From assembly GCA_965218425.1 (NCBI GenBank), contig OZ244621.1:4395498-4459497 (forward strand): a stretch of DNA of 64,000 nucleotides. The letters run 5' to 3'. Within the stretch, counting starts at the first letter, position 1, and every line of letters starts with the position of its first letter. Shown here one piece after another: positions 48,708 through 64,000 of the stretch. The DNA is from an uncultured Candidatus Binatia bacterium (GTDB lineage: Bacteria; Desulfobacterota; Binatia; UBA9968; CAXXLF01). The position numbers and the translations under genes are program-made. Below the pieces are notes generated by a model. It worked only from the letters and a program-made list of their open reading frames with translations, had not been told where the DNA came from and did no database searches.

Positions 48708-49975
48708 TGACCTTGCCCCCTAAAACGAGTCCAGGTGAAATGTTAGGGATTTTGATTTTAGGAAGGAGGCAAGGATGGCAAGAAAGCGATTTACGGCCGA
48801 GCAGATTATCCTCAAGCTGCGTGAGGCGGAGGTGAGCTTGGCCCAAGGGAAGGCGGTGGGCCAGGTGTGCAAGCAGGTGGGGGTAACCGTGCAGACCTAC
48901 TACCGGTGGAGGAAGGAATATGGAGGCCTGAAGATGGATCAGGCCAAGAGGCTCAAGGCCTTGGACAAGGAGAATGCGCGGTTGAAGAAGCTGGTGGCGG
49001 ATCTATCGCTGGACAACCAGATCCTGAAGGAAGTGTCCTCGGGAAACTTCTAGGCCCGGCGAAGAGGAGACGAGCGGTGATATGGGCCAGAGAAAGATTG
49101 GGACCTGATCGAGTCTCCGAACGCCGGGCTTGCCAAGTGTTGGGACAGCCGCGATCGACGCAACGAAGAGTCCGAGAGATCCCGGAAGAGGAAGCAAGAC
49201 TAGTGGCTCGGATGATGGAGCTGGCCAGCGAATACGGGCGATACGGCTACCGGAGGATTACGGCCATGCTGCGTGGGGAGGGGTGGAAGGTCAACCACAA
49301 GCGAGTGGAGAGGCTCTGGAGGCAGGAAGGGCTGAAAGTCCTCAGCCGTCAGCCTAAGCGAGGGAGGCTCCGGTTGACTGATGGCTCCTGCATTCGCCTG
49401 AGACCGGCGCATCGAAACCATGTGTGGAGTTATGACTTCGTGCACGAGCGAACCGAAGACGGTCGGGCCTTTCGGCTGTTGAGCATCCTGGATGAATACA
49501 CCCGGGAGTGCTTGGCGATTGATGTGGCCAGACGGATGAATCACCGGGATGTGCTGGAACGGTTAGCGGAGCTATTCGTGGAACGGGGCGTGCCGCAGTC
49601 CCTTCGGTCCGACAATGGCCCCGAGTTTACGGCTCAGGCTATCCGGGACTGGCTCAAGGCCATTGGTGTCAGGACACTCTACATCGAGCCTGGCAGTCCT
49701 TGGGAGAATGGCTACGTGGAGAGTTTTAACGGAAAACTCAGGGATGAGCTGCTCAACCGGGAGGTGTTTGAAACCCTGAGGGAAGCTCAGGTGCTGATCG
49801 AAAGATGGAGAAGAGAGTATAACCAGCGGCGGCCTCACAGCGCCCTGGGCTATCGTTCTCCGGCACCGGAGGCCTTTCTGCCCAGAGCGCAGGCTGGGAA
49901 TTCATCCCCATGGGCTGGACTCCAGATAATTCCGGCTCTAACTTAAAGGGTGGTACCACTCCTGGGGGCAGGTCA
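48708..49975 (+). mobile_element. IS3-family element, copy 2 (1268 bp), apparently intact
   Basis: Target duplication AAGG; orfA 48775-49053; orfB to 49946 with WSYDF / SDNGPEF / NGYVESFN. Confidence 0.97.
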
Positions 49976-50510: not shown

Positions 50511-52495
50511 TTAAATAGATTTCAATAAATCTTGAAGAGCGGATTCAAGCTCACCAAGTATATTTACCTGCATCGCAGGAAAATGTTCTGGCTCGAATGT
50601 GGAAGGGGTTGGAGACCCTGAATATTTTTTAAACGTCCTACCTATCTCCTTCCTCCTCTTGCTAATTTTTCCCGGCTTCCCGTGATCAACATCATGCTCT
50701 AAATCAGTGCGAAGATTTCGAATATCCTTAAACACAGTCGGCTCATTCTTTAGACGATTTCCGGATCCCTCCCAAAATACGAAATATAGATCATCAATAA
50801 ATGTTTTGTAAGTAGCATAATCTTTTACGGGTTTTCTAAGATTTCTTAAACCTGCCGACGTTTTATTGGTTAATTTGAACAGGTCTATACCATTTTTATG
50901 TGTGACCTGCCCCCAGGAGTGGTACCACCCTTTAAGTTAGAGCCGGAATTATCTGGAGTCCAGCCCATGGGGATGAATTCCCAGCCTGCGCTCTGGGCAG
51001 AAAGGCCTCCGGTGCCGGAGAACGATAGCCCAGGGCGCTGTGAGGCCGCCGCTGGTTATACTCTCTTCTCCATCTTTCGATCAGCACCTGAGCTTCCCTC
51101 AGGGTTTCAAACACCTCCCGGTTGAGCAGCTCATCCCTGAGTTTTCCGTTTAAAACTCTCCACGTAGCCATTCTCCCAAGGACTGCCAGGCTCGATGTAG
51201 AGTGTCCTGACACCAATGGCCTTGAGCCAGTCCCGGATAGCCTGAGCCGTAAACTCGGGGCCATTGTCGGACCGAAGGGACTGCGGCACGCCCCGTTCCA
51301 CGAATAGCTCCGCTAACCGTTCCAGCACATCCCGGTGATTCATCCGTCTGGCCACATCAATCGCCAAGCACTCCCGGGTGTATTCATCCAGGATGCTCAA
51401 CAGCCGAAAGGCCCGACCGTCTTCGGTTCGCTCGTGCACGAAGTCATAACTCCACACATGGTTTCGATGCGCCGGTCTCAGGCGAATGCAGGAGCCATCA
51501 GTCAACCGGAGCCTCCCTCGCTTAGGCTGACGGCTGAGGACTTTCAGCCCTTCCTGCCTCCAGAGCCTCTCCACTCGCTTGTGGTTGACCTTCCACCCCT
51601 CCCCACGCAGCATGGCCGTAATCCTCCGGTAGCCGTATCGCCCGTATTCGCTGGCCAGCTCCATCATCCGAGCCACTAGTCTTGCTTCCTCTTCCGGGAT
51701 CTCTCGGACTCTTCGTTGCGTCGATCGCGGCTGTCCCAACACTTGGCAAGCCCGGCGTTCGCAGACTCGATCAGGTCCCAATCTTTCTCTGGCCCATATC
51801 ACCGCTCGTCTCCTCTTCGCCGGGCCTAGAAGTTTCCCGAGGACACTTCCTTCAGGATCTGGTTGTCCAGCGATAGATCCGCCACCAGCTTCTTCAACCG
51901 CGCATTCTCCTTGTCCAAGGCCTTGAGCCTCTTGGCCTGATCCATCTTCAGGCCTCCATATTCCTTCCTCCACCGGTAGTAGGTCTGCACGGTTACCCCC
52001 ACCTGCTTGCACACCTGGCCCACCGCCTTCCCTTGGGCCAAGCTCACCTCCGCCTCACGCAGCTTGAGGATAATCTACTCGGCCGTAAATCGCTTTCTTG
52101 CCATCCTTGCCTCCTTCCTAAAATCAAAATCCCTAACATTTCACCTGGACTCGTTTTAGGGGGCAAGGTCAGTCGGATACGTCAGGAGCCAAATCACGAT
52201 AATACTGCGCTTTAAAGTTCTTTGAAGATTCCGCAGACAACGAAAGAGCGTTATTAAAAAATTCTAAAATCGTTGCAAGACGCTGCTGACCATCAACAAC
52301 TTCGAATTCTTCTGGATTATCAGATGTTTTCAAGAAATAAAATTTTGGTAATTTCCACCCTCTTAATATACTGTCTATGAGTTTTTGTTTTTTAGCAGTA
52401 TCCCAGACTTCTTCGCGTTGCCAATCAGGGATCTCATAGCGGTGCCGACGCTTATATATTTTGTCCAGAGCTCTATTATTTGAGGAAATTTCCAT
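50511..52495 (-). pseudogene. DUF262-domain protein interrupted by IS3; C-terminal part has an RxxxxH motif
   Basis: N part 52172-52495: IPDWQRE...W...IDSIL...VVDGQQRL. C part 50511-50902 is open (...IRNLRTDLEHDVDHG...). Both parts are AT-rich. Confidence 0.75.
50903..52171 (-). mobile_element. IS3-family element, copy 3 (1269 bp), orfA Q10 changed to TAG and orfB +1 frameshift; no target duplication
   Basis: Same ends as copies 1 and 2; TAG at 52075-52077; extra T near 51150. Confidence 0.95.
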
Positions 52496-52618: not shown

Positions 52619-53817
52619 TGACCTGCCCCCTTGAATGTCCTCACCTCGAGGTTAGTGATTGACCCAGGAGGAGAGGACACATGCGCAAGAGCCGATTCAG
52701 CGAACAACAGATCATCGGGATACTGAAGGAGCACCAGGCTGGGCGTGGGGTGGCGGAGTTGTGTCGCAAGTACGGCATCAGCGACGCGACGTTGTACAAG
52801 TGGCGTTCGAAGTATGGTGGGTTGGAGGTGTCGGAAGCGAAACGGCTTGGGAACCTTGAGGCGCAGAACGCCAAGCTGAAGCGTCTATTGGCGGAAGCGA
52901 TGCTGGACGTATCGACGCTTAAGGAGATGGTGGGAAAAAACTTCTGACGCCCAGGACCAGGAGAGGAGCGGTGGACCGGGCGATGAAGGAAAGAGGGCAC
53001 TGGCAGCGGCGGGCTTGCGCTCTGGTGGGCATGGAGCCGCGGGTGTAGCGGTATCGGTCGATGAGACCCGATGACGGGGAGTTACGGTAAAGGCTGCGGG
53101 AGTTGGTGGCGGAACGTCGTCGGTTTGGGTATCGGCGTGTGCACCTGTTGCTTTTGCGGGAGGGCGTGGTGGTGAACCGCAAGAAGCTGTACCGGCTCTA
53201 CAAGGAGGAGAAGTTGACGGTGCGCAAACGAGGCGGCCGCAAGCGGGCTGTTGGGAGCCGGGTGCCGATGACGATCCCGCAGGGGGCCAATCAGCGCTGG
53301 TCGGTGGACTTCGCATCCGACGCCCTGAGCGACAGCCAGCGCTTGCGCCTTTTCTGCGTGATCGACGACTTCACACGGGAGTGCCTGGCCACCGTCCTCA
53401 GCAACTCCATCACCGGCGAGCGGGTCGCCACAGAGCTGGACAACATCGCTCAACAGCGTGGTTATCCCTTGTTGGTGGTTTCCGACAACGGCACCGAGTT
53501 CACCTCCAACGTGATGCTGCGATGGCAGCAGGGTCGCCGGGTAGAGTGGCACTACATCGCTCCAGGCAAGCCTATGCAGAACGGGCTAGTCGAGAGCTTC
53601 ATCGGGCCTCTGCGTGACGAATGCCTCAACGAACACCTGTTCACCAGCTACCGCCATGCCCGCGAGATCATCGAAGACTGGAGAGCCGACTACAACGCCA
53701 AGAGACCACACACGAGCCTCGACGGACTCACACCGATGGAGTTTGCAATCCGGTCCGGATCGGACCATAACGAAACACGGCTAACTTATACGTGAGGACA
53801 AAAAGGGGAGCAGGTCA
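52619..53817 (+). mobile_element. IS3-family (IS407-like) element related to 15522-16722; orfB has premature stops
   Basis: TGACCTGCCCCC...GGGGAGCAGGTCA ends; orfA 52681-52947; in-frame TAG near 53046 and TAA near 53088; no target duplication. Confidence 0.93.
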
Positions 53818-54791
53818 GTCCGCATACATCATGGCTTTGAGATAACCCTTGGCCTTGGCCTGATCCTTTTTACTCACAGCATCCACCCCGTTGAGAATCT
53901 TGTGATTCGAGCAGATCTGCTCCCCAGCTTCAGGAAAAATCTCTCCTGCACCCCCCCACAACCCCAGATGCCCCTCCCCAACAATAAAACGCGCACTCTT
54001 AAGCCCCCGCCCCTTCACTCCCCTGAGTACCTCTGCCCACCATTGCTTGCTCTCCCGCTAGCCCACTTCCAATGCTAACAACCTCTTGCTCCCATCCCTC
54101 ATCGCCCCCATCACTACCAATACTAGCGCCGCCTTCTCCTTGCCTATCCCAGCCTTTACATCAATCCCATCTGCCCAAAGATATGCTGCCTCCTCTTCCT
54201 CCATACCCTGTGCCTCCCACTGCTCGTAGTCCGCCTCCCACTTCTCCTTGAACCGTAAAAGCCAAAACGCCGATAGCGGTGCCCCTGCTCCCACTAGCCC
54301 CCTCAGCCCCAGCTCAAAATCCCCACTGCCCACACCGTGCCAATAAAGCTCCGGCAATAACTCCCTGACCTGGCGGCTCTGCCGCTTAAATAACGGCAAT
54401 ACCTGGAAGCTAAATCTCTCCTGCACATTCCTTACCCCAGCCCCTCTTACCTCTACGCTCCCCATGCTCAACGTGAACCGGCGCGGCTTACCGTAGCCGT
54501 TGCGATTCCCAGGCTGTCCCACTTCACTTGCTTTCCCCTCGCTCTTGTTCCTCCCCAACCGCTCCACTCCTTCCTGCTCCACCACATCCTGTACCCTTTC
54601 TCCCCAATCTTCTCCCGGGCAAATGCCTCCATGCATTCGTAAAAAACTCCCTTTGACTCTACCAGCCCGCTGTGCTTTCCTATCACCGGCGTATCCTTTC
54701 TCTGCCTGTTGCTCCAGGCAGCTTTTCGTTTGGAATTTACCAATGGGTACGCCTACCTGTCTCCTATTTCCACACTCTTTGATGATAGCTC
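53818..54791 (-). mobile_element. Degenerate IS256-family element truncated by the adjacent IS3
   Basis: RNGYGKPR...ELYWHG...YLWADGI...KAGIGKEKAA...DGSKRLLA; several frameshifts and stops. Confidence 0.8.
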
Positions 54792-55015
54792 GCAGCAACG
54801 TGGGTGACGGCTGGCTCAGATATCTTGCCAAAAGGCGAGGAGGCTGTTAATCATGGTTCTCAATGATGCCCCATTTGGAGATTTTTAATGCACTATTTGG
54901 GATCCGCAATATAACTTCATCGTTTGTCTTACGGGACCAAACTCGGCTCCCTTGGTGCGGACCGCATAGATCTCTAGGACAAGGTTGCTGTGTAACATTA
55001 GTCTAGGAGGAACCA

Positions 55016-55315
55016 ATGGGACAGATATTTGGGCTTGGCATCACTCATTATCCGGCCCTCTCCGTACAGGGGAACATGACCGATCGCATCAAGTTACTTC
55101 TGGCAGACCCGGCCCTTCCTGAACGGATGCGGTCCCTTGATAATTGGCCAGACGGCATGCGTCAACAGTGGGGGGACGGTGAAGGAGAGGCCCCTTCCAT
55201 TGAGCATCGCCAGGCAATGATTGACCGCTTTCGCCTGGCTCGGAAAGCACTCGATGAGTTCCAGCCGGATTTCTGCGTAATTTGAGGTGACGACCAGTAC
55301 GAGAACTGCCGCTAA
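55016..55315 (+). pseudogene. Extradiol ring-cleavage dioxygenase (LigB-like), N-terminal fragment
   Basis: GLGITHYP...ALDEFQPDFCVI*GDDQYENCR*. The TGA falls at a usual Trp and a TAA follows 9 codons later. Confidence 0.75.
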
Positions 55316-55383
55316 GGCATTCTTTGTATTCCAACCTTAGTTGAACTAATAGAAAATGGATCGTTATCCCTGGGAGGATTAAT

Positions 55384-56088
55384 ATGGCCAACCAAGAAAT
55401 CGCACTAGTTGTCGGAACCGGTCTGGGACTCAGCGCCTCACTTGCCAGACTGTTCAGCAAAGAAGGGATGAAGGTGGCCGTGGCGGCCCGCAATCCCGGC
55501 AAATTGGACGGCCTGATCAAGGAGATCGGTGGCCGAGCCTATCCTTGTGATGCAATTGTTCCTAAGGATGTGGAGAGCTTGTTTGGATCTGTGACCAAGG
55601 ATCTCGGAGAACCCAACCTTGTGGTTTACAACGCGAGCCGTAGAGTCCGAGGGCCCATTACGGAACTTGATCCTGACGAGGTACAAAAGGCCATTTTAGT
55701 AACTTGTTACGGGGGATTTTTGATCGGCCGGGAGGCAGCCAAACGAATGATCCCAGCGGGGAGGGGAACCATCCTCTATACCGGTGCCTCTGCAGGCATC
55801 AAGGGCTTTGCCAATTCTTCCATGTATGCCATGGGTAAGTTTGGTCTCAGCGGCCTGGTACAGAGCATGGCACGTGAACTCCAGCCGAAGAATATCCATG
55901 TGGCACAAGTTGTAATCGACGGCGGAATCTACAATCCTGCCGGCGATCAAGAGCGGATCAAAGCACGCGGCCCGGACGGGATGCTCCAGCCGGATTCCAT
56001 CGCTCAAACCTATCTTCACCTTCACCGCCAACACCGTAGCACCTGGGCATCCTACATCGAGCTGCGACCCTGGTCGGAGAAATTTTAA
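55384..56088 (+). CDS. Short-chain dehydrogenase/reductase
   Basis: VVGTGLGLS, VYNAS, TGASA, YAMGK. Confidence 0.93.
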   Translation: MANQEIALVVGTGLGLSASLARLFSKEGMKVAVAARNPGKLDGLIKEIGGRAYPCDAIVPKDVESLFGSVTKDLGEPNLVVYNASRRVRGPITELDPDEVQKAILVTCYGGFLIGREAAKRMIPAGRGTILYTGASAGIKGFANSSMYAMGKFGLSGLVQSMARELQPKNIHVAQVVIDGGIYNPAGDQERIKARGPDGMLQPDSIAQTYLHLHRQHRSTWASYIELRPWSEKF

Positions 56089-56093
56089 GCACT

Positions 56094-56744
56094 ATGCTCA
56101 GCACTCCGTTCTTTGTCTTGATCTTTGCTTTTTTTCTCTCCGCCTCCGTCCTTCACCCAAGCGATGGTACACATAATCAAGAGAACCAACCGTCAACGAA
56201 ACTTAAGGTAGTCGACCAAAAAGAACTAGGGCATACGGAAGAAAACTTAGCAAGGGAGGGTTTTCCCACTTTTCATCCCTTGATCGTACATTTCCCCATT
56301 GTACTTACCGTTGCTGCTTTTCCCTTTTACTTATTGGGAATGCTGCGCCGGCAAATGATCCTGAGACGATCCGGTATAGTTTTGGCTTTTTTTGGCTTTC
56401 TAGGGGCCTTATTGGCCGGTTACGTTTTCCACCCTCACACAGTTGGATTGACTGCCGCCTCACAAAACGCGTTGTGGAGCCATGACCTCTTTGCCAGCCT
56501 AACTCTATATCTCATGGCAATTGCTGTGCCATTAGGGACGTTGACTTGCACACGTCGCTTTTCGCGGTTCAGCTTGCAGGCTTCTACCACGGTTCTATTG
56601 CTGCTATCGGTCGTGATGGTCGGTCTTGCCGGCCATTACGGCGCAAAGTTGGTCCACATCCACGGGGTGGGTCCCAAGGGGCAGTTCCTTGTGAAAGAGC
56701 ATATTAGCCTGCACGTACCCTTCTTCGGACAAAAACTCCCTTGA
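56094..56744 (+). CDS. DUF2231-domain membrane protein
   Basis: HPLIVHFPI...H...GHYGAKLVHIHGVG. Confidence 0.85.
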   Translation: MLSTPFFVLIFAFFLSASVLHPSDGTHNQENQPSTKLKVVDQKELGHTEENLAREGFPTFHPLIVHFPIVLTVAAFPFYLLGMLRRQMILRRSGIVLAFFGFLGALLAGYVFHPHTVGLTAASQNALWSHDLFASLTLYLMAIAVPLGTLTCTRRFSRFSLQASTTVLLLLSVVMVGLAGHYGAKLVHIHGVGPKGQFLVKEHISLHVPFFGQKLP

Positions 56745-56760
56745 CAATCATCTTAACTAA

Positions 56761-58215
56761 TTCTCACTGAAAAAGTCATTTTTTCTGGGTCATCTCTAGC
56801 GACTCGTGGTACAAATAAGACCATGCGTACACCCATATCTCAGCAGTTCAGTTCTGGCGACGGCTTTATCCACCCCTCTCTTTATGCACTGGATGAGGAG
56901 GTTAACAAGGCTGAGAAGCTTTTGAATAATCCCCGATTGCTTAAGCCTTTCGAGAAGGTTTTCCATGAGAGCCGGGTCGTCGTGGCACTCCTGTAGGGAT
57001 TTACCTTCGAATGATGTATCTGAAGTTTCGCTGGGGTTTGAGCTACGAAGAGGTTGAGAGGGAAGTGAGTGAGAGAGAGTTCCGTGGCGTTATTTCTGCC
57101 ATTGGTCGCTCATGGATGCCGTAGCGGAGGCCACCACCTTGATCAAGCTCAACCACGGATTTGGCCGACAGCGGGTGGCCAAGCTCAATCAGGAGCTGGT
57201 CAGATCGTTGGTTAAGAGCCGATCGATCAAGGCCCGGCGCATTCGTATCGACTCGGCCACGCTGCAAGTTCACATCAGTTATCCCAACGATGTCGGTGTT
57301 GTTGACCGGGCGGTCAACACGCTTACCCGCACGGCAGCATGTACGTGGCACCAAGCGAGCCCTGTTTGCTTGTAGTGGGGCTGGAAGGGAGAAGCCCAAG
57401 GGGGGCAAGGAAAAGGGAGGGAAGATTGTTAAGCATGGGGCAAGCTGGCCAAGCATACGGTACACGAGAGCGGCAAGGTCTTTGAACGACTTTGTGCTAC
57501 GGTGTCGGAGCCAAGTAAGGACAAGGAGAAGTATTTGGAACAAATTGAGGTGGCCGAGAGGATTGTGAGCCAGACCGAGCACAAGCTTCAGGGCAAGAAG
57601 TCGATACCCGATAGGATCGTTTCGTTCCACGATGCCGAGGCACGAGCCACCTGCAAGGGCAAGCTCAACAGGCCCGTGGAGTTCGGGCGCACGTTGCAAC
57701 TGGTGCACGACAGTTGTGGAGTCATCGTTCACGATGAGGTCCATGGTGGTAATCCTAACGACAGCACTCAACTGCTTTGTGTGGTGAGCCAAAGTGAAAA
57801 GCGTCTGGGGGTCAAGCCTAAGGAGGTGGCAGCGGACCGAGGATACTAAGGCGCCGATAACGTCGGGAAGTTGGGCAAGGCCGGTATAGCGAGGGTAGGT
57901 ATCCCGGAGGTTGGTGGCTTGAGTATGAGGGAAAGCCGCCATGAGGGGAAACAGTGGTTTAGGGCAATGCAAGGGGTCGGCTGCGGGATAGAAGCGGGGA
58001 TCGGTATGCTCAAAGGCAAGTTTTCTCTGGGTCGAGTACTGGCTAGGGGAGCTCCAGGCACGGCGATCTGGACGGGATGGGTCATTTTTGCATACAATCT
58101 GTGGCAGCAGGAGGTAAAAGATGGTGGTAAGGACCGCACCTTCTCGGCAATGAAATGCCTGATGTGAGTGTCAGGGCCATAGAGTCATCTACAAACGGTA
58201 GTTTTTCAGTGAGAA
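56761..58215 (+). mobile_element. Degenerate IS5-like (DDE_Tnp_1) element
   Basis: Inverted repeats TTCTCACTGAAAAA / TTTTTCAGTGAGAA flanked by CTAA and CTAG. Fragments RIDSAT...YPND, DRIVSFHD...GK...VEFG, ADRGY, IEAGIG. Confidence 0.85.
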
Positions 58216-58229
58216 CTAGCTAGAGGAAA

Positions 58230-58712
58230 ATGAAGAAAATGAATATCAAAAGGTTGCGATTGCTCTCACTGATGAGCATCGCCATAGGAGTTGTGGTTGC
58301 TGCTACCGTTCTATACTCCCAGCCCAATCTCCCCGCTGGACCGCAGATTACGGTCTACAGAAGCCCGGGTTGAGGTTGTTGTTCCAGCTGGGTGGGTCAC
58401 CTGGAAGAGAATGGTTTTCGTGTTACGATCAAAGAGCTATCGCAGTCTCAACTTCAAACGGTGAAGGTAAAGCATGGCGTTCCCCCCGCCTTATATTCGT
58501 GCCACACCGCACTCATTGGCACATATGTCATCGAAGGTCATGTCCCTGCCGATCTCATAATGAAACTATTAAACGAGAGTACATCCCTCACCGGCTTGGG
58601 CGTACCGGGCATGCCCATAGGCTCGCCCGGAATGGAGGGTCCCAACCCTCAGCCATACAACGTCATTGGCTTCGACCGGAACGGTGGGATGCAAATTTAT
58701 GCCCGCAGATAG
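58230..58712 (+). CDS. DUF411 / CopG-like exported metal-binding protein; candidate selenoprotein (U48)
   Basis: RBS gagga, ATG 58230, signal/TM segment, VYRSPG-TGA(58371-58373)-GCCSSWVGHL (consensus CGCC), SCHTA, EGHVP, GMPIGSPGME, all in one frame. Confidence 0.85.
58374..58408 (+). promoter_or_regulatory. Candidate bacterial SECIS element
   Basis: TTCCA..GGTG-GGT-CACC-TGGAA bulged hairpin; the GGU loop starts 21 nt after the UGA. Confidence 0.6.
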
Positions 58713-58734
58713 GGTCTTTAACATCTAGCGACGG

Positions 58735-59700
58735 TCAGCCACCAAATACGACAGCGGAAATACAGGGAAGGCCGCTTATAAGGGTTCGACATTCAGACCC
58801 CTCAATGGCAAGTAGCTCGCCCTCTGAGGTTGCGGCGATAATTCCGTCACTGTCTGGGTCGGGTGTCGTGTCCATGATACCACCACGGAGGCCTTCCGCT
58901 ACCACTTCCCAGTCAAGACCCCCTTCACGGCTTCGAATAATTGCAGAGTTGGCTCTTCCTGTTCCGAGCCAGGTGTTGGGCCGGCCCAAAGAAATTCCCA
59001 GATACATCATCCCGCCAGCCGCCTCAGCAATGGTAGTTCCATAGGTCCTTGACCCCTGTGGCGTAACCTCTGCCCAGTGGGAAGCACGGTCGACGCTACG
59101 AAAAACTCCCTCACCGCAGGCCGCAAGAACCAATTCCGGGTTGTAACCGCAATGGCAGATCTGGTGCACGTCGGGATCGGTGAGACCGTCGTTTGCAGGT
59201 TGCCATGCCTCGCCCCCATCGTCGCTTACCAGCAACCCACCGACTTCTATCCCGGCATATATGCGAGAGGGCGAACCTGGATCTTCAGCCAAGGCGCGGA
59301 CCCGTGGGCTGAGTTCTGGGTTAGGGGGAAACACTCCACCGGCACTCTCAGTCCGCACCCCCTCTAGTTCCAGCCAGTCGCCACCTGGAATGCCACGGTA
59401 CACGGCTGCCGGCCGTGTTCCCACCAGGAGTGATCCAGGTAAGGCAAGTAATGAAAACAAGTTCAGATGGGGTATGCCGGGGTTTGCTCGCAACCACGAG
59501 ACACCACCGTCAGGTGAGAAAAACAGGCCCGAGTGATCAGTGCCCGCATAGACGGTCTGAGGATCTTCTGGATCCACGGCAAGGCAGCTTAAAGTCCAGT
59601 AGGTAAGCGCCCTGCCGGTCTCCTTATAAACGCCACCGTTGTTTTCAAAGCGGTACCAGCCGGAATGAGTTGCAACATGAAGCGCTTTGCCACTACCCAA
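58735..59700 (-). CDS. WD40/YVTN/BNR-like repeat beta-propeller protein
   Basis: Asp-box repeats SPDGGVSW, SDDGGEAW, SVDRASHW, SREGGLDW. Confidence 0.85.
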   Translation of the reverse strand: MGSGKALHVATHSGWYRFENNGGVYKETGRALTYWTLSCLAVDPEDPQTVYAGTDHSGLFFSPDGGVSWLRANPGIPHLNLFSLLALPGSLLVGTRPAAVYRGIPGGDWLELEGVRTESAGGVFPPNPELSPRVRALAEDPGSPSRIYAGIEVGGLLVSDDGGEAWQPANDGLTDPDVHQICHCGYNPELVLAACGEGVFRSVDRASHWAEVTPQGSRTYGTTIAEAAGGMMYLGISLGRPNTWLGTGRANSAIIRSREGGLDWEVVAEGLRGGIMDTTPDPDSDGIIAATSEGELLAIEGSECRTLISGLPCISAVVFGG

Positions 59701-59918
59701 TCGTCAGGTTCCTCCCTGGATGAGTTAAATTACGGATCACCCCGTTAGCAGGGGCACTATATTATAAGGTCACCGCCATGTCTATGGGGGTCCATTGGAG
59801 GAGGCTACGAGCTTGACCTCAGAGAGCCAGCTGTTCACAAGCAGATCAAGAGCAGTATCGGGCGTCTAAGCCTCGATGTTATCGTATTGAAGGGAGAATC
59901 GTTGGTGGGAAGGAGAGG

Positions 59919-60663
59919 CATGGGAACTGGGAAGTACGCCCTTGGATCCACCATTATGTTTTTGCTGCTGCTACCGGCAACAGCCTATGGAGAAACGCCG
60001 TCGACCATCTACACGTCAGTACCCAACAGCGTGATCCTACCGATTATAAAGCAAATTGACCAGCTCAATCCAGATATTAACTTCCGGGGTTACCGATCTG
60101 GAACCAACAAGATCATCGTCAAAGTAAAATCCGACCTTAAATCTACCGGGAGAGTTAAGGCCAACCTGATATGGGCGGCCGACCCCGCGTATTTTATCGA
60201 CCTAAAGGAACAAGGGTTGCTTTTGAAGTATACCTCGCCCAACGCATCTGTGATTCCATCCATCTACAAAGATCCTGACGGTTTCTTCACCGTAGGTAGA
60301 ATCCTGAACATGGGCATCACCTATAACACGAAAATGGTCAGTCCCGACCAGTCACCTAAAGACTGGATGAACCTCCTCGACAATAAATGGAAGGGCCAAA
60401 TTGCAATACCAGCTCCCAACTACTCGTGGTCAACTCTCGATACAGTAGAGGCCCTTTCCAGTAAGTTTGGCTGGGATTTCTTCAAAAAACTCTGGAACAA
60501 TGGCTTAACGGTTATGAAAACGAGTGGTGGGACCGTAAGAAAGGTCTCCACGGGAGATGTGAAGTCGCCATACAAGGAACCATTTCAAACCCCATGGAAG
60601 CACAGGTGGCATGGGGCACGGAATAGATGTAAATATTCTATGCAAGTGTGTGGTTGGACTTGA
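59919..60663 (+). pseudogene. Fe3+/AfuA-like ABC substrate-binding protein, C-terminally truncated
   Basis: Signal peptide, TIYTS, ANLIWAAD, YNTKMV...PKDW...L...WKGQI. Similarity is lost after about 60560 and no permease or ATPase is adjacent. Confidence 0.65.
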
Positions 60664-60786
60664 GAAAATGGGATTTTTATCGAACAATTCATATAGACGG
60701 ATGAGGTTGGCAGGGAACCAAACACAACAATATATTCTTACTGCAGAATGAAAATTAATGTTATGATCTCTCAAGGATTTGACCAT

Positions 60787-61317
60787 ATGAACCGACAACA
60801 TAGAACTTACCCAAATCGCACTCTAGCTTCATTGAGCCACGGTCGCCTGATCGCGGTTTTTATAGCAAGCACTCTCATCTGTTTGGTCTCGTTGGAAGGA
60901 CTATCCTGGGCGGCGGATATGGTGCGAGTCAAGGTGAAAACCGCTAATATCCGATCCGGACCTGGAAAAAAATTCGATAAAGTAGGAAAGGTCCCGGAGA
61001 ATTATCCCTACCGGGTAATCAGTCGGAAAGGTTCTTGGCTGAAGGTGAGGGACTTTGAAGGGTTCGAGGATTGGATCTATGGTCCGCTGACGGACAAGGA
61101 GCCTGCTGCCGCAGTAAAGGTGCCCAGGGCCAATGTCCGACAGGGTCCCGGCACCCGTCACCCCATCATACTGACCGCCGACAAGGGTGTGGCTTTTCGA
61201 ATTCTGGCCAAACAGGGCGATTGGGTCAAGGTGCAAACCGACGAAGGAGACGAAGGTTGGGTCTCGCGAAATTTGTTGTGGGGGTATTTTGACGCCAAGA
61301 AAAAGAAAGGCAGATAA
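60787..61317 (+). CDS. Exported tandem bacterial SH3 (SH3_4) domain protein
   Basis: ANIRSGPG...WLKVRD...DWI; ANVRQGPG...WVKVQ...EGWVSRNLLWG. Confidence 0.88.
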   Translation: MNRQHRTYPNRTLASLSHGRLIAVFIASTLICLVSLEGLSWAADMVRVKVKTANIRSGPGKKFDKVGKVPENYPYRVISRKGSWLKVRDFEGFEDWIYGPLTDKEPAAAVKVPRANVRQGPGTRHPIILTADKGVAFRILAKQGDWVKVQTDEGDEGWVSRNLLWGYFDAKKKKGR

Positions 61318-61438
61318 AAAGATGCACCTCTCAAAAAGTAAAAAATACCGGCGGCAGCCGACCTGTCAAGCCATCAAATAATCTAACCCTAGCGGCCGAT
61401 TGACAGCCCCCTCGTTTTCGCATATCCTGCGCGCCATT

Positions 61439-61972
61439 ATGAGCGACAACCGAGATACGAGTCCAGTATTGATCAAAATGCACGCGGCCGTAGTGGAAGC
61501 GGCCGCTGCGCGAATTTTTCCCACCACTGAAACTCCTGGTGCCACCGAAGCCGGAGTAATTAATTACATCCAACGGTTGCTCGGTGAAGCGTTCCCGGAG
61601 CTCGCCTCCCTTTACCGGAGCGGGTGCCGCGCCTTGAATCGCCACGCAAAACGCCGATTCGGCGTTGGCTTCCTACGCATAGCCGTAACTGACCGGGACT
61701 TAGTGCTTGCGGATTTCGAGGCGGACCAGGTCCCCGACTTCAAACAAGCCACTGACTTCTTTGAGATGCTTCGGGACCACACCATGGAGGGTGTCCTCGG
61801 CGAGCCTGCATACGGGGGGAACCGTGATATGGTAGGCTGGCGACTGGTGGGCTTCCCCGGTCATCAATTTGGTTATTCCCATCAGTACATCAACCAGCGC
61901 GTGGATGTTGAGCCAGTGGCAGTGGACCGGCCCTTTTCAACCGAGGAGGAGTGGCATGCCAAATCCCGTTGA
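61439..61972 (+). CDS. Gluconate 2-dehydrogenase subunit 3-family protein
   Basis: PGATEAGVINYI...YGGNRDMVGWRLVGFPG. The ORF-track TTG at 61400 looks like a -35 box (TTGACA-17-TATCCT). Confidence 0.88.
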   Translation: MSDNRDTSPVLIKMHAAVVEAAAARIFPTTETPGATEAGVINYIQRLLGEAFPELASLYRSGCRALNRHAKRRFGVGFLRIAVTDRDLVLADFEADQVPDFKQATDFFEMLRDHTMEGVLGEPAYGGNRDMVGWRLVGFPGHQFGYSHQYINQRVDVEPVAVDRPFSTEEEWHAKSR

Positions 61973-63638
61973 CGTTTGCATCGTGGGCATGGGTGCGGTG
62001 GGCGGCATCATGGCAAAGGAGCTCGCGTCCGCCGGACTGAAAGTGGCAGGGCTCGAGCGGGGCCCGCTTCTCGAGTTCGAGGACTACGCTTACAAGGACT
62101 CCATACGTGCCATTGCCAGACGACAACTCGAGGAAAAGGTCAAGCACGAACCCATCAGCATCCGGCCTGAGCGTGGCGCCAAGACAAGGCTCCAATACAC
62201 CACCTCTCCGAGTAACAGTGTTGGTGGCGGACTGATGATCTGGACAGGTAGTGCAACACGATTTATGCCGGACGACTTCAAAGTCTATAGCAACGACGTA
62301 CGCGGAGGGGTTGCCAAACGAGCCGGCGCTGACCTGAAAGGTTACAATATCGCCGATTGGCCCATCACCTACGACGACCTTGAGCCCTATTATGAACGTT
62401 TTGAGTGGGAAATGGGTGTTTCGGGTAATTCCGGCGCCAATCCTTTCGAAGGCCCTCGCAAAAAAGGCTACCCCTTGCCTCCATTGCGTCCGAGTACCCG
62501 TACGCAACTATTCGGCGACGCCTGCAAGCGTCTCGGATACCATGCCTACCAGACCCCCCAGGGCATCCTGTCGCAGCCCTACAAACCTCCAGCGCCATAC
62601 GATCAACGTATACCCGAGCGCCAAGGGTGCGTTTATTGCGGTCATTGCAACAACTACGGCTGCCATGTGCATGCCAAGACTTCCTCGCCTTTCACCGTGA
62701 TCCCGGCTGCGCTGGAAACAGGGAACCTGGACCTGCGCACACGATGCAAGGTCTTTCGGGTCAACTCCGGCCCCAATGGACGGGCCAATAGCGTTTCCTA
62801 TTTCGACCCAGACGGTAAAGTGGTGGAACAATCCGCCAAGGTGATTATCCTGGCAGGCTTTCTCTACGAAAACATCCGGTTACTGCTGCTCTCGGGAGAG
62901 GGGAAAAAGGGCCTCGCTAATTCCAGCGGGATGTTGGGCCGTTGTATTATGGCCCATGGGGATGTCCGTACCACGGGTCTATTTGACGATACCATTATCA
63001 ACGGATTTATTGGCCCCAACGGCGGCATGCGATTGGATGACTTCAACGGCAATAACTTCGACCATGCCGGCCTGGGATTTATCCGCGGAGGCACAATCGG
63101 AACCAGTGGCGGCGGTGCACCCATCGAGCGATGCGATGTCATTCCACCGGGTTGGCCCCGTTGGGGGGAAAAGTACAAAGAAAATCTCGCTCGCTACTAC
63201 ACCCGGGGCTTCGATGTAAGCATACACCCCGAGACCCTCGCCCATAAGGACAACTTTGTGGACCTGGACCCGGTGCGAAAAGACGCCTGGGGAGTTCCAC
63301 TGCCCCGTGTTACCTTCGACTTCCACCACAACGAGCACCGCGTGTGGCGCTACATCGGTGAAAAGTCGGAAGGAATCATGCGGGAGGCAGGCGCGAGCCA
63401 TGTTTGGACAAAACCAAGTAACCGTGGCAGCCGTTGGGCCGGCGGAACACGCATGGGCGATGATCCGAAAAAGTCGGTGGTCAATGGCTACTGCCAGACT
63501 CACGACGTGGAAAATCTCTTTGTGGTGGGCTCTGCGGTGTTTCCCACCATGACTGGCTATGCCGCCACGCCCACAGTGAGTGCCCTTGCGTACCGCACTG
63601 CGCAGTATATCAAATCCAACGGGAAGCTGGTCGGCTAG
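61956..63638 (+). CDS. GMC-family flavoprotein oxidoreductase
   Basis: VCIVGMGAVGG, VGGG, WPITYDDLEPYY, CxxCxxC...GC, GGTRMG...SVVN...HDVENLFV; RBS gaggag. Confidence 0.93.
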   Translation: MPNPVDVCIVGMGAVGGIMAKELASAGLKVAGLERGPLLEFEDYAYKDSIRAIARRQLEEKVKHEPISIRPERGAKTRLQYTTSPSNSVGGGLMIWTGSATRFMPDDFKVYSNDVRGGVAKRAGADLKGYNIADWPITYDDLEPYYERFEWEMGVSGNSGANPFEGPRKKGYPLPPLRPSTRTQLFGDACKRLGYHAYQTPQGILSQPYKPPAPYDQRIPERQGCVYCGHCNNYGCHVHAKTSSPFTVIPAALETGNLDLRTRCKVFRVNSGPNGRANSVSYFDPDGKVVEQSAKVIILAGFLYENIRLLLLSGEGKKGLANSSGMLGRCIMAHGDVRTTGLFDDTIINGFIGPNGGMRLDDFNGNNFDHAGLGFIRGGTIGTSGGGAPIERCDVIPPGWPRWGEKYKENLARYYTRGFDVSIHPETLAHKDNFVDLDPVRKDAWGVPLPRVTFDFHHNEHRVWRYIGEKSEGIMREAGASHVWTKPSNRGSRWAGGTRMGDDPKKSVVNGYCQTHDVENLFVVGSAVFPTMTGYAATPTVSALAYRTAQYIKSNGKLVG

Positions 63639-63942
63639 GATAACCTACCATCAGGGAACCCTCTACGGGTTCCTTCGGTGCAAGATCACGCTTCCCTGAA
63701 CCGGCTAGAATTATCTTTTAGCAATCTAACTCGGTAAAATTTTCATTTAGGTCGGCCAACCTCACTCCCGATTACCCGCGTTCACCGGGGAGCACCCGGT
63801 TTGCAACGGGGGCCAGCCATCAGAAAGTTTCGGAACCCTGGATGAATTCTGATTTGGCTTTTTCAACCGCAACCTTGACACCTTTTTCTCGTGTGATAGG
63901 GAGAGAACTCTTGTCACAGTGTCGAATAACGGGAGATTTGTA

Positions 63943-64000
63943 ATGGAGAGCCAAGAATTCGTACAAGAATTACTGGGCATTGTAAGAGACTTTTGCCGAA
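63943..64000 (+). CDS. Start of a CDS running off the window (MESQEFVQELL...)
   Basis: RBS ggaga and an open frame to the window end. Confidence 0.4.
   Translation, partial: MESQEFVQELLGIVRDFCR

Follow-up and report, generated by a model that had tools for sequence, protein, structure and literature searches.

A probable selenocysteine form of the DUF411/CopG copper protein family, encoded across an in-frame UGA codon

Introduction

Proteins resembling CopG are described in one review as periplasmic and thioredoxin-like, with a tetranuclear copper cluster held by a CxCC motif and two methionines (PMC7558416). The same review credits them with a contribution to copper resistance under anaerobic conditions, and proposes that they oxidize Cu(I) and hand copper over to other proteins (PMC7558416). 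The CopG of Pseudomonas aeruginosa, represented by PDB entries 6WIS and 6WJE, is the only solved relative of the protein considered here. Linkage to genes for copper export or copper oxidases is common among DUF411/CopG genes, but it is not a strict criterion for membership of the family.

Thioredoxin-like folds also host some well-described selenoproteins. Table 1 of a 2026 review gives the thioredoxin, glutaredoxin, DsbA-like and DsbG-like selenoproteins, among others, with a UxxC motif (PMC13188914). In these proteins, as is proposed for the locus described below, selenocysteine (Sec, U) replaces the N-terminal cysteine at the start of helix 1, but the motif proposed here is UxCC, and the equivalent site of the solved relative is a metal cluster rather than a dithiol/disulfide pair. 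SaoT, a component of the SAO system, likewise is thioredoxin-like, exists in UXXC, CXUC, CXCC and CXXC forms, and is argued to act on a heavy-metal species (bioRxiv 10.1101/2022.07.06.499078). Compared by description, SaoT belongs to a different family and a different genomic system from DUF411/CopG. Furthermore, the 2026 review gives predicted Sec forms, with Sec at predicted metal sites, for a CopZ-family 2Fe-2S protein, the SO_0444 Cu/Zn efflux transporter, an E1-E2 cation ATPase and a YHS-domain protein (PMC13188914), but these copper-related proteins have unrelated folds and belong to unrelated families, and none is a DUF411 protein.

No published Sec form of DUF411/CopG was found in the literature that was searched. 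The family is absent from the 119 prokaryotic selenoprotein families tabulated in the 2026 review, whose full text contains neither PF04214 nor CopG nor a UxCC or UGCC motif, and whose eight mentions of DUF families concern families other than DUF411 (PMC13188914). The main text of the BSepDB paper has no mention of DUF411, copper or CopG, and its supplementary family list could bear on novelty. Also, NCBIfam, which carries curated selenoprotein models, gives no match to the protein described here.

The gene of interest lies near one end of a 64,000-nucleotide stretch of DNA, the whole of which is called the window here, from an uncultured Candidatus Binatia bacterium (GenBank assembly GCA_965218425.1, contig OZ244621.1). 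Its product shares with the P. aeruginosa CopG the family, the fold, the x-C-C part of the motif and the residues C91, H92, H104, M128 and M135. It differs from that protein in that the codon for the first cysteine of the motif is TGA, and in that linkage to copper genes is lacking. We consider it very likely that the locus is a single intact CopG/DUF411 gene in which the UGA at 58371 is decoded as Sec, and thus that it encodes a genuine selenoprotein that has escaped annotation.

Results and Discussion

A DUF411/CopG gene divided by one UGA codon

The frame begins at ATG 58230 and continues on the forward strand to a TAG stop at 58710-58712, with the TGA at 58371-58373 as its only in-frame TGA. 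Translated with TGA as U, it yields a product of 160 residues that carries U48. The residues before the TGA are MKKMNIKRLRLLSLMSIAIGVVVAATVLYSQPNLPAGPQITVYRSPG, and those from the TGA onward begin GCCSSWVGHLEENGF and continue in the same frame up to the TAG. In the immediate vicinity, ...ITVYRSPG is followed by the TGA and then by GGT TGT TGT (G-C-C). The features of the gene are as follows.

58223..58226, + strand: GAGG resembling a Shine-Dalgarno site, with ATG 58230 following after 3 nt and the in-frame ATG 58239 after 12 nt (from the sequence)
58230..58712, + strand: full coding sequence of the proposed DUF411/CopG selenoprotein (frame open with TGA read as U; PF04214; match to 6WIS; structural model)
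58230..58319, + strand: candidate export signal or membrane anchor, residues 1-30 (hydropathy profile; modelled helix 6-29)
58371..58373, + strand: in-frame TGA, the proposed Sec codon for U48 (aligned with the first Cys of CxCC in Cys homologues)
58371..58382, + strand: U-G-C-C motif, counterpart of the CopG CxCC copper-cluster motif (alignment of 50 homologues)
58392..58712, + strand: 106-aa open reading frame (ORF) from a GTG, the part reported by gene callers (ORF list; public protein collection)
58491..58634, + strand: Pfam DUF411 core, residues 88-135, which holds the invariant C91, H92, H104, M128 and M135

Because a second in-frame ATG is present at 58239, 12 nt from the GAGG, either ATG may be the true start. 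The first 30 residues are rich in K/R with a long hydrophobic stretch thereafter, and homologues have comparable N-termini. A first-pass annotation of this DNA had pointed to an ATG at 58230 with a ribosome-binding site, an export signal, and a frame that passes through VYRSPG-TGA to a complete DUF411 C-terminus. These elements are all present in the sequence, as the GAGG at 58223-58226, as a K/R-rich and then hydrophobic N-terminus that is a candidate export signal and has a modelled helix at 6-29, and as a frame that is open to the TAG and scores 82 bits against PF04214.

Only the portion after the motif is called by annotation pipelines, as the same annotation had remarked. A mechanical ORF list splits the frame into 58230-58373 (47 aa) and 58392-58712 (106 aa, GTG start), and the public protein collection stores only the 106-aa piece (P0004) for the source genome. 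This fate is shared by the relatives. The closest 16 public proteins (67-80% identity) all have 106 aa and the same GTG start just after the motif. The Sec forms seen in the protein collection all are stored as 106-residue stumps, and the full-length relatives, at about 50% identity, carry CGCC.

Fold and conserved residues of the read-through product

The read-through product matches PF04214 (DUF411) in Pfam at 82 bits against a cut-off of 27 (E 2.5e-23), and its residues 40-158 match the sequence of CopG in PDB 6WIS at E 4.3e-30. Since the latter match begins eight residues before the TGA, the stretch upstream of the TGA is part of the domain. In an AlphaFold model built on 50 homologues (mean pLDDT 93.8), helix 6-29 is followed by strand 39-44 and helix 49-60, which places residue 48 at the N-terminus of helix 1. 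This is the classical place of the first Cys in a thioredoxin-fold motif. When the model is compared with known structures using Foldseek, the top matches are CopG chains (for 6WIS_A, target TM 0.91, rmsd 1.5 A and 44% identity), and thioredoxins and glutaredoxins rank after these with weak E-values only. Thus, the model agrees with the earlier proposal of a thioredoxin-like fold with a CxCC-type motif, in which residue 48 starts helix 1.

The alignment of the 50 homologues has invariant C50 and C51 and a nearly invariant Cys at position 48. The Sec forms retain C50 and C51 together with C91, H92, H104, M128 and M135, the latter five being invariant in the alignments. As a side observation, three relatives of 230-279 residues (P0002, P0003 and P0005) consist of two tandem DUF411 domains with CxCC in each.

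UGA and cysteine codons among relatives

If the UGA specifies Sec, some relatives should pair U with C at the same position, and an alignment of homologues had been proposed as a check at the outset. This pairing was found both in metagenomes and in the genomes of another phylum. A metagenome scan that was seeded with C-terminal patterns only yielded 80 loci, 79 of which could be parsed by the motif pattern. A TGA stands at exactly the first-Cys codon in 28 of the 80 (27 of the 79 parsed loci, plus L045), and the remaining loci have TGC or TGT there. In the phylum of locus L025 (labelled Gemmatimonadaceae), DUF411 is present in 316 of 401 genomes, a tally that takes in the unpublished genomes G501, G561 and G461, which enter no other result given here. 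At least 12 genomes of this phylum have a gene with one TGA among the 150 matches listed (there are 192 further matches), and the site of the TGA is the first-Cys codon in all 12. Among the named-genome loci that were parsed, Cys is present in 14 of 14, and a search of genome contigs with a single protein gave Cys forms only.

The genes with TGA at this codon, called Sec forms here, have an open frame on either side of it without exception. In those from metagenomes, the upstream part keeps the conserved strand (I/V)TVY(K/R)xP(T/G), and the downstream part has 110-116 residues, the same as in the Cys forms. Many of these genes end in a TGA stop, and therefore TGA is not a general sense codon in the organisms that carry them.

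Two relatives depart from this pattern. A protein from JGI (P0013) has W at the first-Cys position (...VYQDPG-W-GCC...), which could reflect either a substitution to TGG or a TGA that the depositor's gene caller rendered as Trp. The other is a 421-residue frame in a genome from the phylum of the window (L023:646-1908, minus strand, genome G020), which has a signal-like N-terminus, a distant DUF411-like domain and a polytopic membrane domain. Its DUF411-like domain reads YSPG-U-PEC, with the TGA at a UxxC motif and a strong hairpin after the UGA. The frame has no match to a Pfam family, and the genome has selB. This gene may be a second, fused Sec form of the CopG fold.

Selenocysteine machinery of the source genome

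Any Sec reading depends on a dedicated decoding pathway, and the search for sel genes suggested by the first-pass annotation uncovered a complete one. The tRNA-Sec scores 76.5 bits and is called by ARAGORN as tRNA-SeC with anticodon TCA, and the profile scores are 413 bits for selB, 592 bits for selA and 378 bits for selD. All four genes are located around 1.30-1.31 Mb of the source genome. The selD gene (G000:C1:1307623-1308549, minus strand, where G000:C1 is the contig of the source genome) has its own in-frame TGA, in SGUAAK, and thus is itself a selenoprotein gene. This sequence is consistent with the UxxK motif given for selenophosphate synthetase in the 2026 review (PMC13188914).

The alpha subunit of formate dehydrogenase (TIGR01553) was not found in the source genome at E 1e-30. 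The Sec machinery here therefore serves other proteins, and this enzyme provides no second SECIS reference. In the phylum of L025, selB is above the cut-off in 12 of 12 genomes with a Sec form versus 10 of the 12 top-ranked controls with a Cys form. Because most controls also have selB, its co-occurrence with the Sec forms is consistent with Sec decoding but does not discriminate between the two groups.

A hairpin downstream of the UGA codon

The SECIS element of Escherichia coli fdhF is a short hairpin within the coding region, directly after the UGA, whose loop presents a G and a U about 20 nt away. A comparable structure can be formed at the present locus.

58388..58404, + strand: SECIS-like hairpin of 7 bp with a GGU loop at 58395-58397 (energies; pair counts in Sec versus Cys forms)

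The likeness to the fdhF element consists of a short hairpin inside the coding sequence, with G and U in the apical loop and at a similar distance from the UGA. The differences are that the loop here has three bases and that no bulged U was identified. The pairs are C-G, U-G, G-U, G-C, G-C, U-A and G-C, and the loop starts 21 nt after the A of the UGA. Numbering from the T of TGA as 1, bases 18-34 correspond to 58388-58404 and the loop to 25-27. The 7-bp form has an energy of -7.4 kcal/mol and the minimum free energy (MFE) register (58382-58406) one of -8.9 kcal/mol. The bulged hairpin with a GGU loop 21 nt past the UGA, which had been noticed in the first reading of the sequence, also can be drawn, at -7.1 kcal/mol.

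The 86-nt stretch folds no better than shuffled sequences (z 0.71), so the hairpin on its own is not beyond chance and its weight comes from the relatives. Furthermore, four inner pairs are fixed by the peptide, since the stem is built of conserved Trp-Val and His-Leu codons. The informative sites are the third positions of the Val, His and Leu codons, the loop codon and the 18-34 pair.

Comparisons between Sec and Cys forms favor the hairpin at these sites. All six pairs from 19-33 to 24-28 can form in 19 of 27 distinct Sec rows of the alignment versus 6 of 65 Cys rows. Pooling with the genome set gives 32 of 40 Sec rows versus 12 of 90 Cys rows for the six pairs from 18-34 to 23-29. When the comparison is restricted to rows that encode W-V-x-H-L, 18 of 24 Sec rows combine Val GTG with Leu NNR, versus 6 of 24 Cys rows, and His CAC is found in 21 of 24 versus 9 of 24, at a similar GC3 (0.73 for Sec, 0.78 for Cys). 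In 24 of the 27 Sec rows the first base of the loop codon is G, and GGT is the commonest codon there.

Covariation is modest, as changes on both sides that preserve a pair are few. At 18-34, 17 rows have GC and 3 have CG, the window among these 3, and at 24-28, 18 rows have GC and 1 has AU, with locus L156 providing a second AU case. Two Sec forms (L046 and L156) have Tyr (TAC) in place of the conserved His after the loop, plus Val GTA. The TAC codon thus occurs together with a change on the other side, and the loop-closing pair stays, as A-U. In a phylogeny-corrected test of independent pairs on the 130-row tree, which has too few columns to be well resolved, a single pair fell on supported branches, too few for power.

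Certain Sec rows lack the main register. Three marine ones (L077, L087 and L106) have a hairpin of shifted register in the same region; the folds of L077 and L106 have the loops GGUCAAA and GUCAA, respectively, and the register of L087 (loop GGUCG) was read by eye and differs from its MFE fold. No clear counterpart of the hairpin was seen in the Sec rows L101 and L116. RNAalifold gives a weak consensus of 4 pairs for the 27 Sec rows (-1.9 kcal/mol). A scan of the window at Rfam gathering thresholds returned tRNA only, with no SECIS-type match, and a permissive Rfam scan of 58340-58470 gave only chance-level matches. The hairpin downstream of the selD TGA in the same genome has a CCC loop, and hence shares no loop motif with the GGU hairpin.

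Overall, TGA-bearing relatives exist and most of them keep the hairpin; the first reading had named the opposite outcome, TGC or TGT in all relatives and no hairpin, as evidence against Sec. Judged from these sequence comparisons, the hairpin at 58388-58404 is likely, though not proven, to be a SECIS element.

Weighing the alternative explanations

A TGA within a gene at the end of a contig invites the suspicion of a sequencing or assembly error, and the structure of this contig gives some cause for it. The source genome is represented by one contig of 4,459,497 bp, the last 10.1 kb of which (window 53877-64000, G000:C1:4449374-4459497) are an exact inverted copy, with 0 mismatches, of about G000:C1:3289962-3300085. 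The copy ends exactly at the contig end with no continuation across the contig start, an arrangement that looks like an artefact. It may be either an IS-mediated duplication or an artefact of assembly at the contig end. The TGA itself does not depend on this choice, because the internal copy of the DUF411/CopG gene is identical and has the same TGA. In addition, contigs from 4 public sequencing runs in 3 studies span at least 58289-58900 with 0 differing letters, and relatives share the TGA. One of the 4 runs may stem from the source sample, and no RNA data set was listed among the sequencing runs. It is scarcely credible that an error explains the codon. Another explanation is that a recent nonsense mutation, from TGC or TGT to TGA, has inactivated a CopG gene, as TGA is one base away from both Cys codons and degraded transposase fragments surround the gene. 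Yet the same TGA is present in the 28 metagenome loci and the 12 genomes described above, at 41-65% protein identity, and a nonsense lesion would not persist across such divergence. The frames on both sides of the TGA are intact with all conserved residues kept, and the protein of the window falls inside a well-supported clade composed of Sec forms only (see below). We therefore regard a pseudogene as very improbable.

The other explanations deny that Sec is inserted. The UGA might be read through with Cys or Trp by a near-cognate tRNA, for which the W recorded at the first-Cys position of relative P0013 could be cited, or translation might terminate at the UGA, with the 106 residues from GTG 58392 made separately. 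Strand 1 of the solved domain, the motif and the export signal would all be missing from such a fragment. Read-through without Sec has to contend with the complete Sec machinery of the source genome, with selB in 12 of 12 other genomes that carry a Sec form, with a hairpin that is kept at SECIS distance, and with the fact that many of the same genes themselves terminate at a UGA. Taken together, these alternatives to Sec insertion appear quite unlikely, and decoding of the UGA as Sec is the reading followed below.

Proposed function of the probable selenoprotein

On the preferred reading of UGA 58371 as a Sec codon, translation would begin at ATG 58230 (or 58239), and at the UGA, SelB carrying Sec-tRNA(Sec) would bind the hairpin 58388-58404, so that Sec is inserted without termination. 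The 160-residue product presumably is exported, or anchored in the membrane, by its N-terminal hydrophobic segment. It would then fold as a thioredoxin-like CopG domain, with U48 beside C50 and C51 at the place where CopG binds its tetranuclear copper cluster. A selenolate, which is softer, more nucleophilic and ionised at neutral pH, would take the place of a single thiolate at the cluster or redox site, and probably would accelerate Cu(I)/Cu(II) handling or the transfer of copper. These steps, from Sec insertion and export to copper binding and a kinetic advantage, are what we infer; the reading frame, the homology, the pairing of Sec with Cys, the Sec machinery, the conservation of the hairpin and the fold are what the analysis shows directly.

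The conservation of C50, C51, C91, H92, H104, M128 and M135 points to an otherwise unchanged site in which one thiolate gives way to a selenolate. A copper function is suggested by homology, and gene context adds nothing to it: no copper genes were found flanking the DUF411/CopG gene in the window, and the 70 neighbouring ORFs of 14 Sec-form loci include none save one YHS-domain protein (at L119). More specifically, linkage to copA, cus or multicopper-oxidase genes was found neither at the window locus nor at the 14 Sec-form loci.

A broader interpretation can be advanced tentatively, without our quite expecting it to hold: the Sec forms of CopG might constitute a natural multinuclear copper site with selenolate ligation, possibly with bridging Se, that has arisen through several Cys/Sec interconversions. 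If so, selenium would have been selected recurrently for extracytoplasmic copper handling in bacteria from soil, sediment and marine habitats. Independently of this interpretation, the Sec forms, if genuine, would enlarge the bacterial selenoproteome by a widespread family absent from current catalogues and annotation, and annotation pipelines would need a Sec-aware PF04214 model to recover it. They further would bring selenium into the metal-binding motif of a copper protein whose structure is solved, and so could offer a tractable natural system for comparing Se with S ligation of copper clusters, by means of a U48C variant and the natural Cys forms.

Evolution and genomic setting of the gene

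On a tree of 93 rows, the protein of the window is placed in a clade of 14 rows composed only of Sec forms (SH-aLRT 98), and the row closest to it is L041, with 65% identity. Explaining the Sec state takes 6 changes on this tree and 11 on a tree of 130 rows, and the branches with support force only one change between Sec and Cys. Repeated Sec/Cys interconversion is suggested by the sequence trees, with a single origin as the alternative.

Within the phylum of the window, a close copy of the gene is present only in the genome of the window, out of 401 genomes sampled. This distribution, together with the IS elements that surround the gene, suggests that the DUF411/CopG gene was acquired horizontally. 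It is located within the IS-rich 10.1-kb segment that is duplicated at the contig end, where its neighbours encode an SDR protein, a DUF2231 membrane protein, transposase fragments, a BNR/sortilin-like protein and a solute-binding protein. Mobile-element genes in the window are found at 48867-49946, 51131-52012, 53103-53795, 54058-54831 and 57043-58167. This cluster comprises three copies of an IS3-type integrase (rve), some of them truncated, plus a fragment of a Mutator-family transposase, and degraded pieces of a DDE transposase lie directly upstream of the DUF411 gene.
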